This document shows positions 58,732 through 64,000 of a DNA stretch of 64,000 nucleotides, one piece after another. This DNA comes from Alphaproteobacteria bacterium (GTDB taxonomy: Bacteria > Pseudomonadota > Alphaproteobacteria > GCA-2731375): assembly GCA_965232515.1 (NCBI GenBank), contig CBDDPY010000002.1:1760001-1824000 (forward strand), given 5' to 3'. The notes beneath the pieces were generated by a model, which worked only from the letters and a program-made list of their open reading frames with translations, was not told the DNA's origin and did no database searches. Numbering within the stretch: the first letter of the stretch is position 1; the number at the start of each line of letters is the position of its first letter. The position numbers were made by a program, and so were the translations under genes.

Positions 58732-59481
58732 TCATTCCGTAGACCGCGCTTCATGCGATGTCGCCGATCCCTTGTTGAGGCAGAGGAGCAGTCGTGTGCG
58801 GCCAGTTCCCGCGATGGGCGGCGAGCGGTGCACGATTCCGCTGCCCGGACTGGCGCAGCTTCCCTTGAAGATCGCCACGTCGTGGGCGCGGAGATGCTCC
58901 ACCGGTCCGGTGTAGCGTTCCTGTTCGTGCAACGCCCGCGCGGCGTAATGCGGTTCGACCCACTGGGTGCCAGGGCCGCGGTATGTGGTCAGCAGGCGCG
59001 CCTCCACACAATCGCGGTGGAACTTCCAGCACGCGTTATTGCTGACGCGCTCCAGCCGAACATCAACGAGATCGCTTCGGGTGATACCAGCAAAAGCCGA
59101 AACGAGGTCATCGACGTCGCCGATCAGCAAGTCTCGCATGTCTCCCGGCGGCATCCCGCATTCGTCCAAATGGGATTCCACCGCCTGTCGAACGTCGCCG
59201 GATTGGACGGCAACACGAAGGTGAGGAAGATACGAGGCGTCCAAGCCTTCGAGCCAGGTCTTCAAAGACAAGGGGGGCACGCGCCGCCAGATCACGAGCT
59301 CCCGGTCGGGCCCTTTGATGTCCGCGAGCCCTTCCGCCGAGCCGCAGGTCACAATGCGTTCGGCCAGTCGAGCGGATGTTTTGGTGAATTCATGAGCCGG
59401 GGTTGCCAACGGGCGGGCCTCGAGACCTTCGTCGTGGGGCGTATCGAGCAAGCCCAAGGCATCTGGTCGAAGGATCGCCAT
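58732..59481 (-). CDS. DUF1826-like protein
   Basis: LVIWRR, CWKFHRDCV..RLLTTYRGPGTQW, DVAIFKG, GIVHRSPP, RLLL. Confidence 0.8.
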   Translation of the reverse strand: MAILRPDALGLLDTPHDEGLEARPLATPAHEFTKTSARLAERIVTCGSAEGLADIKGPDRELVIWRRVPPLSLKTWLEGLDASYLPHLRVAVQSGDVRQAVESHLDECGMPPGDMRDLLIGDVDDLVSAFAGITRSDLVDVRLERVSNNACWKFHRDCVEARLLTTYRGPGTQWVEPHYAARALHEQERYTGPVEHLRAHDVAIFKGSCASPGSGIVHRSPPIAGTGRTRLLLCLNKGSATSHEARSTE

Positions 59482-59482
59482 T

Positions 59483-60610
59483 TCAGAGCGACTCCCTGAT
59501 CATGGCCTCAAAGTCATCCTCCGTCGCCTTGCGCGGATTGGTCAGGGCGGACAGGTCCTTCTTCGCATAGGTGATCAGGTCGGGAATGTCTTCCTCCTGA
59601 ACGCCCATAGCGCTCAGGCCGGACGGCAGACCGATGTCGGCGTTCATGGCGGACACCGCGTCGGCAATGTCGGCACCGGGCGGTAATCCCATGGCCTGGC
59701 GGAGGCGATCATATTTCTCGCCACAGTCAGGTGCGTTGAACCGCAGCACTGCGGGCAGGAAGACCGCGTTCAGAGTGCCATGATGGAGATTCAAGCGCTC
59801 GATGCGTCCCGCAGCATGGCTTAGGGCGTGAACGGCACCCAGGCCTTGAATGAAGGACAGCGCCCCTTCCGTTGAGCACATCATCATCTGCCACCGGGCC
59901 TCGCGATCCTTGCCGTCACGCACCGCGGTTGGCAGGTGACGCCAACCCCGCCACAAACCGTCAAGCGCCACGCCATCGGCGGGGGGATTAACCGTCGGTG
60001 TCAAGAGTGCCTCGATGCAATGGGTGATCGCATCCATGCCCGTGGCCGCCGTCATTGTCGCAGGCAGGCCCAATGTCAGTTCCGGGTCGCAGATGGCTGC
60101 TTTCGGAACAAAGAGCGGGCTTGCAAAGGTCAGTTTGCGCCCATCGTCCATGATGATGACGAACCCGACGGAAACCTCACTGCCCGTTCCGGCCGTGGTC
60201 GGCACCGCAATCAGGGGCGCGACCGCCTTGACGAGCTTTGCGCCGCCAGCCAGGGGATCGAACTGAGCAAGCGGACCGCCACTGCCTGCGAGCAGCGCGA
60301 CAGCCTTGCCCAAATCCATTGAGGATCCGCCACCAATGGCGAGGACGCCATCACATCCGTCAGACGTATACTGGTCGAATGCCTTCAGGACGGCTGCTTC
60401 CGTTGGATTTCCGGGCGTACCGTCGAAGAGCGAGGTTGGTGTATCCGCCTCAAGCACGCTGGTGACGCTTTCGACAAGCCCCGCCGCCACAACACCAGCA
60501 TCCGTGGCGATGAACGGCTTCGAGATGCCCGCTTTGCGCAACTCGGCCGGAATCTGCTGCACGGCGCCATAATCGAAGTGGGTCGTCGTCAAATACGTCA
60601 GCGTTGCCAT
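59483..60610 (-). CDS. Iron-containing alcohol dehydrogenase (4-hydroxybutyrate dehydrogenase-like)
   Basis: GGGSSMD, PTTAGTGSE, metal ligands GMDAITHCIE / VHALSH / LHHG. Confidence 0.88.
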   Translation of the reverse strand: MATLTYLTTTHFDYGAVQQIPAELRKAGISKPFIATDAGVVAAGLVESVTSVLEADTPTSLFDGTPGNPTEAAVLKAFDQYTSDGCDGVLAIGGGSSMDLGKAVALLAGSGGPLAQFDPLAGGAKLVKAVAPLIAVPTTAGTGSEVSVGFVIIMDDGRKLTFASPLFVPKAAICDPELTLGLPATMTAATGMDAITHCIEALLTPTVNPPADGVALDGLWRGWRHLPTAVRDGKDREARWQMMMCSTEGALSFIQGLGAVHALSHAAGRIERLNLHHGTLNAVFLPAVLRFNAPDCGEKYDRLRQAMGLPPGADIADAVSAMNADIGLPSGLSAMGVQEEDIPDLITYAKKDLSALTNPRKATEDDFEAMIRESL

Positions 60611-60632: not shown

Positions 60633-60866
60633 CTAGTGAGAACGCGCGCGAGGATGTCTGAGCAGCGCGGCGACTTGCATGAGATGAGCGGCGGTCTGAG
60701 CGGGGTTTCCACAGCGCCCCGCCATCTCGATCAATTCCAGCGTCAGCGCATCGACGACGGCGTCGGACGGGAGCCAGGCCTCGCCCGCTTGTGTGATGGC
60801 TTCCTGCAGAAATCGCCGGGCCTTTTTTACGTCTTCCGCATGCACGGCTGCGATCGCATCGTTCAC
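60633..60866 (-). CDS. Small helical hypothetical protein (77 aa), paralog of 62122-62418
   Basis: GTG start overlaps COG0523 stop (GTGA), GGAG upstream; ungapped similarity to the upstream small ORF. Confidence 0.7.
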
Positions 60867-62098
60867 TGTTCTGTCTCCGAGCTGCGCCGCCAAATTGGGA
60901 ACGGGTCCCTCAGCTTTCTCCAGGCAGCGGGCTGCATTGCCTTGGCGTTGGCGTCACCGACAAGGCAGGTGTCGAGACGACGACGGATCGCGGCCTCGTC
61001 CATGTCGGTGCCGATAAAGACGATTTCCTGGCGGCGATCTCCATAGATTGGATCCCAGACGTTGGCAATGTGCTGTCGCCATTCCGGATGGTCCGGCCAG
61101 TGGTCCTTCGGCACGCTGGACCACCAGAAGCCCATGGCTTCATGCCGCACCAGCGCGCCGGCCTGGCTCAATTCGCCAACCCACTCCGGGCGGGTGGCGA
61201 GCCAGAAGTGCCCCTTGGCACGAATGACGCCTGGCCAAGAGGCGTTGAGGAAGGCGTGGAACTTCTCGGGATGAAAGGGGCGGCGCGCCCGATACACAAA
61301 GCTGCGCACGCCATACTCTTCGGTCTCGGGCTTGTGCTCCGCGAAGCCGTACAGCTCCTTGAACCACAGCGGGTGTTCCTCGGCCTTGTCGTGGTCGAAC
61401 CGGCCGGTGTTCAGCACCTTATCCAGCGGCACACGCGACATGTTCGTCTCGATCAGGTCGGCGTCGGGATTGAGCGAGCGGATGATCTTGCGCGCGGCAT
61501 CGATCTCCTCGGGCGTGGCCGCGTCGATCTTGTTCAGAATGATAACGTCGGCGAACTCGATCTGATCGACGAGCAGGTTGACCAGCGTGCGGGTGTCCTC
61601 CTCGCCCAGCGACTCGCCCCGGTCCTTGAGGAAATCGGTCGAGGCGTAGTCGCGCAGAACGTTCGCGGCATCGACCACGGTCACCATCGTATCGAGGCGC
61701 GACACATCCTCGAGGCTTTCTCCTTCTTCCGTCCGGAAGTTGAAAGTGGCCGCCACGGGCAGCGGCTCGGAGATCCCGGTCGATTCGATCAGGAGGTAGT
61801 CGAACCGGCCATCCCCCGCGAGTCGTCGCACCTCCTGGAGAAGGTCGTCGCGCAACGTGCAGCAGATGCAGCCATTGGTCATTTCGACCAGGGTCTCTTC
61901 GGTGCGGCTCAGATCGGCGCCGCCGTCCCGAATGAGGTCGGCGTCTATGTTGACTTCGCTCATGTCGTTGACGATGACCGCGACGCGTTTGCCTTCGCGG
62001 TTGTTGAGGATGTGGTTCATCAACGTGGTCTTGCCGGCGCCGAGGAAGCCGGACAGGACGGTAACGGGAAGCTTGGCGTGCGGGAGAGTTTCACTCAT
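60863..62098 (-). CDS. zigA: COG0523 zinc metallochaperone GTPase (ZigA/YciC type)
   Basis: [56 protein letters not shown], Cob[28 protein letters not shown]. Confidence 0.92.
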
Positions 62099-62121
62099 GG
62101 ACGGAGACTTTCATGCTGGAA

Positions 62122-62418
62122 TCATCGTTTGCGGCCTTCCTGGATTGCCGAATGTGGCCTATCTGAGGTCGATATCTCGCCGGCAAGCTGGCCCAGCACG
62201 GAAGCCACGCCGTCCGCTCCGTAGGCTTCGACGAGACGCGGCATCAACTCTGTCATCAGCGCAGCGAGCACCGTATCTCTGGGGATGCCTGCTTCATCGC
62301 ACCGTGCGATCGCAGCGCGCACCTCAGTCAGGGCATCAGCCAAGCGTGGGGGCAATTGGACGTCGGAGATATCGTCGACGGGCTCAAGCAGGGAGTGTGC
62401 TGCCGTTCGATCTTGCAT
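62122..62418 (-). CDS. Small helical hypothetical protein (~98 aa), first gene of the Zur-box leftward operon
   Basis: GAGGTGG upstream of ATG 62418; 23 nt before zigA; similar to 60633-60866. Confidence 0.7.
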   Translation of the reverse strand: MQDRTAAHSLLEPVDDISDVQLPPRLADALTEVRAAIARCDEAGIPRDTVLAALMTELMPRLVEAYGADGVASVLGQLAGEISTSDRPHSAIQEGRKR

Positions 62419-62634
62419 ACGTCCATCCACCTCAAAGCTGCGTTGGGTTTGGCGCATCGCCATAGACGGCCTTCGGATGGAAGGATTTCTGTGACACCGC
62501 GAGCACGAGCCGAGCTGGTGAGAACGGACTCTGTCGGTCGCCTACCGACCATTGCTGTGTCCATGTCAAACCCTCACCTACGGCCACTCCCCCGGCGACC
62601 GAAGGACGTCGGTTTTTTGCAATCAGCAAATGCT

Positions 62635-62646
62635 ATGTTATAACAT
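62635..62646. promoter_or_regulatory. Zur box overlapping divergent promoters
   Basis: Perfect palindrome ATGTTATAACAT (proteobacterial Zur core); plus TTGCAA(62617)-N16-TATAAC and minus TTGTGT(62664)-N16-TATAAC both use it as the -10. Confidence 0.88.
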
Positions 62647-62679
62647 TACGGGGTTTAAACACAAGATAAGGACAAGGTC

Positions 62680-63177
62680 ATGGCGTTTCTGTCGAGCCAG
62701 CCCAGGCCTTGTACCGATCCCGATTGCCGCAGGCAGCATGCGCCGGCGGAACGGGTTGCGCTGGCAAAGTCCCTCTGCGGCGCGCAACTTACAAAACTGC
62801 GGCGCCAGATACTGGAACTGCTCTGGGAGAGCGGTCGCCCGATGGGCGCCTACGAACTGATCGAAGCGCTGAAGCTCAGGGACTCTCGCCCGGTCGGACC
62901 GCCCACCGTCTACCGGACGCTTGAGTTTCTGATATCCCAGAAGCTCGTCTCGAAGATCGAGAGCCGGAACGCTTACGTACCCCGCGCGCATCCGGAGCGC
63001 CGGCATGACTGCATTTTCTTCATCTGTAGCAACTGCGGGTCGTCGGTCGAGTTGGAGGACCTGCCGCTTGAGCGCCTGATCTCCAAGGATGCCGCCCTTA
63101 TCGGGTTCCGCCCAACACGGCGCGTGGTCGAAGTCGAGGGCACCTGCGCGAGTTGCATCTCGGCCGGTGCGTCCTGA
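62680..63177 (+). CDS. zur: Fur-family regulator, Zur-like
   Basis: LT.LRRQILELL, GAYELI..L, PPTVYRTLEFL, IES.NAY, FICSNCG..VE, EVEGTCASC. Confidence 0.82.
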   Translation: MAFLSSQPRPCTDPDCRRQHAPAERVALAKSLCGAQLTKLRRQILELLWESGRPMGAYELIEALKLRDSRPVGPPTVYRTLEFLISQKLVSKIESRNAYVPRAHPERRHDCIFFICSNCGSSVELEDLPLERLISKDAALIGFRPTRRVVEVEGTCASCISAGAS

Positions 63178-63449: not shown

Positions 63450-63643
63450 CGCTATGCCTGACCAATACGCTGACCAAGACGAAAGAGCTTTTCTCGCCGG
63501 CGGATGCCCAGCGGTCCATCTTAGACAGCTTTGGGTTTCTCGAAGATTGGGCCGAGCGCTACCAGTACCTGTCGCCATTCCCGGAGACGAAGCGGATCGA
63601 GGCCAACCGGCTGCATGGCTGTCAGGCCGGGGGAAGCGCATAA
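63446..63643 (+). pseudogene. Internally deleted / miniature SufE
   Basis: I.DSFGFLEDWAERYQYL and EANRLHGCQ match SufE; the IDLGR.L segment and the C-terminal half are missing. Confidence 0.7.
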
Positions 63644-64000
63644 TGGATCTCGACCTATACAACAAACAGATCCTGCGGCTTGCCGCGTCGATACCCCGAG
63701 TCGGCCGGCTGGCGGCTCCCGACGCGTCGGCAACCGCGCATAGCCGGCTTTGCGGCAGCCGGATCACCGTCGATCTCAAGCTCGATGGCGATGTCATCAC
63801 CGACTACGCCCACGAGCTCAAAGCCTGTGCCATCGGGCAAGCGGTCGCCTCCGTCATTGCCAAGGTTGTCGTTGGCCTGACCATCGATCAGGTGGACGAG
63901 GGCGAAGGAATTCTGCGTGCCATTCTCCGGGACAAGACGCTCCCGCCGCCGGGGCCCTGGGTCGAACTCGAGCCATTCCTACCGGTCGCGGACGTCAGCA
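63643..64000 (+). CDS. SufU/IscU (NifU_N)-like Fe-S scaffold protein, 3'-truncated by window edge (not in ORF track)
   Basis: MDLDLYNKQILRLAASIPRVGRL..PDASATAHSRLCGSRITVDL..KACAIGQA; TAATG overlap with mini-sufE. Confidence 0.85.
   Translation, partial: MDLDLYNKQILRLAASIPRVGRLAAPDASATAHSRLCGSRITVDLKLDGDVITDYAHELKACAIGQAVASVIAKVVVGLTIDQVDEGEGILRAILRDKTLPPPGPWVELEPFLPVADVS

Follow-up and report, generated by a model that had tools for sequence, protein, structure and literature searches.

Gene context of the A and B types

This analysis concerns two small open reading frames (ORFs), here called A and B, which bracket zigA, the gene for a COG0523 zinc metallochaperone GTPase, in a 64-kb stretch (the window) of a 7.4-Mb alphaproteobacterial genome of 66% GC. 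The profile comparisons given below confirm that A and B are distant paralogues in one undescribed family, and each type keeps its own company. The A type belongs to a conserved folE-hisI-A-zigA-DUF1826 core, and the B type is paired with one subfamily of iron-type alcohol dehydrogenases (Fe-ADH) in a two-gene module, which a few lineages carry as an insertion between zigA and DUF1826. We tentatively read A and B as separate, non-catalytic accessory proteins of a zinc-starvation operon, with B dedicated to the Fe-ADH. A fixed A-B pair is unlikely, because A goes with the chaperone-operon core and B with the Fe-ADH. The original prediction, made from the DNA letters alone, had proposed that A and B function as a heterodimer, and this did not survive the comparison of loci: A is found without B in 16 of 17 A-type loci, and B without A in three of five B-type loci.

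B-type genes were found in the window and in L035, L036, L066 and L067 (L- and G-numbers denote compared loci and genomes). In all five the gene immediately precedes an Fe-ADH with 81–100% identity to that of the window, and in only three is it also the next gene after zigA. Three of the loci (L036, L066 and L067) have no A-type gene nearby, and the full A-zigA-B arrangement of the window occurs again in L035. In L036 the A gene is lost, and its first codons seem, by eye, to be fused to the last codons of a dsrE-like gene. The B-Fe-ADH pair of L066 (genome G327) is situated about 5 kb from zur-zigA and on the opposite strand, and in G303 the order is B-Fe-ADH-COG0523, where the COG0523 protein is only 28% identical to ZigA. 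The same tie is seen from the side of the enzyme. In a 401-genome sample of the class, Fe-ADH orthologues of at least 81% identity are confined to the three genomes with B, all of which have one, the next best being 64% identical. Of 27 loci whose Fe-ADHs are 51–64% identical, none carries a family member at a distance of up to 1.5 kb. B-type genes are rare, with two loci in a pattern scan of 185,579 species genomes and three of the 401 class genomes. The operon Fe-ADH may be a zinc-sparing replacement or a client of the chaperone. A second Fe-ADH, a 54%-identical paralogue, is present in the window's genome (G000:C2:580134-581261).

The A type was counted in 17 genome-derived loci, with the window excluded. 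The order that recurs is a second COG0523 gene and zur, divergent from folE-hisI-A-(dsrE-like)-zigA-DUF1826. Directly upstream of A, hisI is present in 14 loci, a remnant in one and absent in two. Downstream, zigA is present within 0.6 kb in 10 loci, as fragments in two and absent in three, and two loci reach a contig end. Another 17 loci from metagenomes, some of them duplicates of the genome loci, have a similar layout, with zigA downstream in 10. The conservation of the neighbourhood with COG0523 that was to be expected from the original prediction holds in part: zigA is near A in 10 of 17 loci, but B tracks the Fe-ADH and is adjacent to zigA in three of five.

In related loci FolE and HisI share the operon with ZigA and are candidate clients, and FolE is probably zinc dependent; FolE and HisI are named as Zn-dependent in Haas 2009 and the 2024 Chem Rev review. 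The folE beside zigA in L016 and L023-L036 is of the GTP_cyclohydroI type (PF01227) and appears by eye to keep the CEHH motif. In the L036 copies, Pfam confirmed PRA-CH for hisI and GTP_cyclohydroI for folE.

Some further variation was observed around the A type. In L028, L030-L032, L105, L107-L110, L112 and L016, A and zigA are separated by a gene of 126 amino acids (aa) that looks dsrE-like by eye and is matched by no Pfam family. In L021 a DUF169 gene occupies the A-zigA region, and the A-like ORF there appears degraded. Pelagibius sp. Alg239-R121 has two hisI-A-zigA blocks, on separate contigs (L025 and L027). L112 shows a deletion which is similar to that of folE and hisI in the window and apparently independent of it.

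ORF A and ORF B as genes

Both ORFs were confirmed on the minus strand, and the GTPase that they were said to bracket is ZigA:

62122..62418, minus strand: ORF A, 98 aa, A-type member of an undescribed small helical family
60863..62098, minus strand: zigA, COG0523 zinc metallochaperone GTPase (NF038288 plus Pfam cobW and CobW_C)
60633..60866, minus strand: ORF B, 77 aa, B-type paralogue of A, with a GTG start overlapping the zigA stop

The ATG of ORF A is preceded by GAGGTGGA. A longer version of 113 aa, reaching to 62463, was rejected in favour of the start at Met16, as most homologues begin at the equivalent Met; the additional N-terminal codons correspond, by eye, to an alternative frame of the conserved hisI 3' end. 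Among the 39 homologues listed for ORF A, 28 are 93 aa long, and 12 of the 13 ORF B homologues are 77 aa, the remaining one being 79 aa. The GTG start of ORF B shares its TG with the TGA stop of zigA (CAGTGAAC) and GGAGA lies upstream, so the geometry agrees with the translational coupling to the GTPase that had been suggested.

Purifying selection had been named beforehand as a test of the two ORFs. Pairwise estimates by the Nei-Gojobori method gave ratios of nonsynonymous to synonymous substitution (dN/dS) of 0.19–0.47 for A (9 pairs), 0.10–0.30 for B (4 pairs) and 0.06–0.10 for ZigA (5 pairs), which indicates that both ORFs are under purifying selection. A leader-peptide or spurious-ORF reading was rejected on these ratios and on the conservation of the homologues. 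Contigs from RNA-seq libraries of two studies, 92–99% identical to the window, cover A (X1 at 61956-62390, X3 at 62120-62322 and X4 at 62001-62316), and single contigs (X2 and X3) run across Fe-ADH, B and the 3' end of zigA, with no coverage over 62399-62700. These contigs, which have no zinc condition attached, give weak support to the expression of A and B.

A and B in one protein family

The alignment on which the homology of A and B was first proposed, 16 identities in 51 positions without gaps, was reproduced exactly, and only 2 of 2000 shuffles of B reached 16 in their best 51-residue window. BLASTP of A against B gave an E value of 4e-4 across 24 residues. When profiles of the close A and B families were compared with hhalign, the probability was 71–73%, the E value about 3e-5 and the score 30.4, a score reached by none of 527 column-shuffled B alignments (mean 10.5, standard deviation 2.3, maximum 21.4; the reversed alignment scored 10.8). 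The broad A-family alignment contains 115 sequences and no B member. Its profile matched that of B over 62 columns with 95.4% probability (E 1.7e-8), and in the 7.4-Mb genome it found exactly two places, A (4.3e-34) and B (5.9e-7). Furthermore, the B-family hidden Markov model matches 28 of 144 A-family representatives at E <1e-3, and one of them, P0186, which scores 38 bits against the A profile and 35 against that of B, bridges the families. The proposal that A and B are diverged paralogues was borne out by these comparisons. A search of the own genome with the single A and B proteins detected no additional paralogue.

In a profile search of 1.84 billion representatives, the A family gave 144 clusters at E <=1e-3 and 77 at <=1e-10, which sets its size to at least 144 clusters at 50% identity. 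Nearly all of the representatives are stand-alone proteins of 66–125 aa. The description of A and B as unknown proteins also holds: ORF A has no Pfam or NCBIfam match at E <=1, the highest-scoring such match of ORF B, TilS, reaches 16.7 bits where the cut-off is 21, so that no family is assigned, and a shared Pfam family was found for 0 of 115 family members. Pfam detected no DNA-binding motif in A, B and the family members and nothing in 10 distant matches from the class, and the ESM Atlas returned for A only unnamed hypothetical clusters, all <0.9. In the broad A-family alignment G67 is the only invariant column and L75 is near-invariant; Cys40 of A is kept in the closer clade only, and the alignment contains no conserved set of Cys/His ligands of the HypA/UreE type.

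One family member, P0132 (211 aa), carries DUF1636 (residues 6-119, E 9e-30) fused to an A-like domain (132-201). DUF1636 is a neighbour of cobW. The related-locus search returned nothing for P0132, nothing for P0186 and nothing for B in metagenome contigs. Weaker matches of the broad profile (L041, L044 and L046-L065) are helical proteins of small size with acidic tails, found in many alphaproteobacteria; their neighbours are unrelated, and Pfam matches none of them. Either a wider superfamily or a compositional resemblance may lie behind these matches.

Predicted structures

The AlphaFold2 (AF2) models agree with the earlier suggestion that both proteins are helical. The A model has a mean predicted local distance difference test score (pLDDT) of 75, with a core above 90 and helices at 26-42 and 47-85, and the B model has a mean pLDDT of 73 and helices at 2-27, 35-52 and 55-70. 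A and B are thus predicted to be small and all-helical with confident cores, as members of a family of about 75–100 aa proteins, and the segments that hhalign aligned (A 24-85 and B 11-72) span a helix-loop-helix region in both models. Foldseek of the A model against the PDB found no match at E <=0.001. The best structural neighbours of the A model, HI0947 (2juz, Z 5.2) and CPS_2611 (2jr2, Z 4.9), are below the noise level of the tool for helical proteins. A co-fold of ZigA with A, run as one job, scored 0.00 against a mark of 0.32 and was used neither for nor against an interaction.

The operon and its control region

On the minus strand of the window the gene order is (folE and hisI deleted)-A-zigA-B-Fe-ADH-DUF1826. 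Besides ORF A, zigA and ORF B, the following features were identified:

62680..63177, plus strand: fur-family regulator, presumed Zur (Pfam FUR, E 7e-11), divergent from the operon
62633..62648: Zur-box-like palindrome, core ATGTTATAACAT, in the spacer that separates the operon from the divergent fur-family gene
62435..62518, minus strand: 3'-terminal remnant, 28 codons, of a hisI-like (PRA-CH) gene (tblastn to HisI residues 148-175, 82% identity)
59483..60610, minus strand: Fe-ADH, iron-type alcohol dehydrogenase (Pfam Fe-ADH plus ADH_Fe_C)
58732..59481, minus strand: DUF1826 protein, last gene of the operon (Pfam DUF1826, E 1.5e-46)

The GTPase scores 645.3 bits on the ZigA model NF038288, against an equivalog cut-off of 600, and contains the domains PF02492 (cobW, 1.6e-55) and PF07683 (CobW_C, 1.3e-27). 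Its translation shows the P-loop GFLGAGKTT and the metal motif GCICC; the CICC site of COG0523 proteins is described in the available part of the 2024 Chem Rev review. Fe-ADH starts 22 nucleotides past the stop of B, and most related loci likewise end with DUF1826. In the window, folE and most of hisI are deleted and A-zigA is kept, and the related loci have folE-hisI intact. A NifU_N-like ORF is found just past the zur gene (63454-63999, plus strand) and runs off the end of the window.

Orthologues of the fur-family gene occupy the same position in related loci, at 69–82% identity. The palindrome at 62633 (CTATGTTATAACATTA) is the sole site within two mismatches of the tested 16-mer in the 64 kb, and a related palindrome, with 1–4 mismatches, occurs in the spacer between zur and the operon in all 10 of the 10 related loci. 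Judged against a Zur consensus, it may be a Zur box, and the operon would then be under the control of Zur.

Distribution and possible horizontal acquisition

ZigA orthologues at E <=1e-150 are present in 40 of the 401 class genomes. Of the 33 genomes from the same order as the window, only the window's own has an A-type gene, and none of the three genomes sampled from the same family has ZigA. The closest operons sit in other alphaproteobacterial lineages. The GC content of the operon is 62.4%, as compared to 66.1% for the window. The patchy distribution of A and ZigA, together with the lower GC of the operon, suggests that the operon may have been acquired horizontally.

Proposed role of A and B

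A protein-binding accessory role can be inferred for A and B because they have no conserved metal ligands and no match to an enzyme family. We tentatively propose that each is produced together with its neighbour under zinc starvation and acts as a non-catalytic accessory by binding protein. B would then escort or present the Fe-ADH, and A would escort an enzyme of the core operon or modulate a COG0523 GTPase. Such an action could aid the metal loading of the enzyme, or stabilise its metal-free form. The analysis establishes that A and B are real and homologous genes, that they belong to the operon and that they follow rules of synteny; control by Zur, the partners and the way of acting are put forward on that basis.

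Several observations weigh against this reading. A is kept despite the loss of zigA in L017/G001, L024 and L034, and despite the loss of hisI in the window, L024 and L112, and G098 keeps A with zigA 1.3 Mb away. No gene of the operon accompanies the A type in every locus, so A may have a partner whose gene lies outside the operon, or a broader role. A family member occurs in just six of the 40 ZigA-bearing class genomes; since the other 34 have none, the family is dispensable for the function of ZigA. When 32 genes next to distant family matches were tallied by Pfam, neither a common family nor a relation to metals emerged, and the link to zinc is therefore not extended to the whole superfamily. 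The link between B and Fe-ADH comes from five loci, three of them closely related, and the compared loci in general are kin, which makes the counts overstate their independence. The RNA-library contigs are no proof of transcription, as DNA can occur in such libraries.

A somewhat unlikely alternative is that A and B act on COG0523 GTPases generally, either ZigA or the paralogue adjacent to zur, and that their adjacency to hisI and Fe-ADH is incidental. A COG0523 gene is indeed found within 5 kb in all five B loci and in most A loci, the fusion of DUF1636 to an A-like domain in P0132 points in the same direction, and the tails of the distant A-like proteins P0157 and P0168 resemble, by eye, an out-of-frame COG0523 N-terminus, which would place these genes directly upstream of one. 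However, G001 keeps A and has no ZigA at E <=1e-150 (a search limited to ZigA), L024 has no COG0523 gene in about 11 kb, and the family is missing from 34 of the 40 genomes with ZigA. Nor would this reading account for the strict tie of B to Fe-ADH.

We consider it unlikely that the family consists of client-specifying adaptors of bacterial Zur-regulated COG0523 chaperones. In that case each subfamily would bring one enzyme to the GTPase for metal loading when the cell is starved of zinc: Fe-ADH for B, and HisI, FolE or DUF1826 for A.

The obligate helical heterodimer, serving ZigA as adaptor, GTPase modulator or client-targeting subunit, is quite unlikely. Its appeal is that the paralogues flank zigA, and paralogues often form heterodimers; moreover, the start of B overlaps the zigA stop, the A-zigA-B layout recurs in L035 and both proteins are predicted to be helical. 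It is contradicted by the 16 of 17 A-type genome loci beyond the window that do without B, by L036, which has B with A deleted, and by L066 and L067, where B-Fe-ADH occurs without an A-type gene, in L066 about 5 kb from zigA on the opposite strand. B co-occurs strictly with the Fe-ADH subfamily.

We give equally little credence to A and B as small regulators or antagonists, which might, for instance, act on Zur or a different factor as a helical dimer. In favour are a small, helical and possibly dimeric fold, the resemblance of the A model to two small helical proteins, of which one is a homodimer (though Z 5.2 and 4.9 are at noise level), and the varied contexts of distant relatives. The lack of a DNA-binding motif by Pfam speaks against such a role, and the fixed positions within the operon and the co-occurrence of B with Fe-ADH indicate gene-specific roles. 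Finally, it is hardly credible that the ORFs are non-functional or alike in composition only: they are short, Ala/Leu-rich ORFs of a 66% GC genome, in a region overlapped by numerous spurious ORFs, but all 13 pairs have a dN/dS well below 1, the 39 and 13 homologues are conserved with fixed lengths, the shuffle controls were exceeded and the AF2 cores are confident.

Comparison with known systems

The operon resembles the Zur-regulated COG0523 operons of ZigA, ZagA and YciC in its ZigA equivalog, divergent fur-family gene and palindromic box. It shares hisI-like, folE and DUF1826 neighbours with the Zur/COG0523 clusters of Haas 2009, in the accessible part of which HisI paralogues and DUF1826 are placed in such clusters and the Figure 4 legend lists DUF1826. 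As compared to the operons in the accessible text of these papers, the present one adds one or two members of the undescribed family and an Fe-ADH. Where those texts name a folE in Zur clusters it is FolE2 (FolE1B-type), whereas the related loci here carry folE of the GTP_cyclohydroI type. The consulted section of the 2024 Chem Rev review describes a link between ZagA and FolE and states that bacterial Zur-regulated COG0523 proteins have no known metalloenzyme client. According to the consulted text of the Paracoccus paper, zinc induces an operon there in which a COG0523 gene is accompanied by two hypothetical proteins (pden1338-1340). The original prediction knew of no small helical partner of a bacterial COG0523 protein, and none is described in the main-text portions of Haas 2009, Chem Rev 2024 and the Paracoccus paper; literature searches likewise brought none to light.

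HI0947 and CPS_2611 (a homodimer), the neighbours of the A model at noise-level Z, align with it over 73–74 residues at 8–14% sequence identity; both are structural-genomics targets with titles that give no function. In HypA-HypB and UreE-UreG, a small protein, a possible accessory like A and B, is encoded beside a G3E metallochaperone GTPase. Conserved His or Cys residues serve HypA and UreE as metal ligands. The two proteins have no sequence match to A or B by Pfam and no fold match to the A model by Foldseek and a wide structure search. In eukaryotes, the chaperone ZNG1 binds its client METAP1 directly and is not known to use a separate adaptor, whereas the small proteins here are separate genes. 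ZNG1 is, in the consulted part of Chem Rev 2024, the accepted example of a COG0523 protein with a dedicated client.

Significance

The operon, whose small proteins obey strict positional rules, narrows the possible clients and accessories to a few candidates that can be tested. If the adaptor reading were true, the operon would name the long-sought clients of COG0523 proteins. If B is needed for the metalation or activation of Fe-ADH, or if A binds a COG0523 GTPase, this would be the first accessory subunit described for this class of chaperones. Otherwise, A and B would still represent a new, conserved family of small proteins that is tied to the zinc-starvation operons of some marine-type Alphaproteobacteria.

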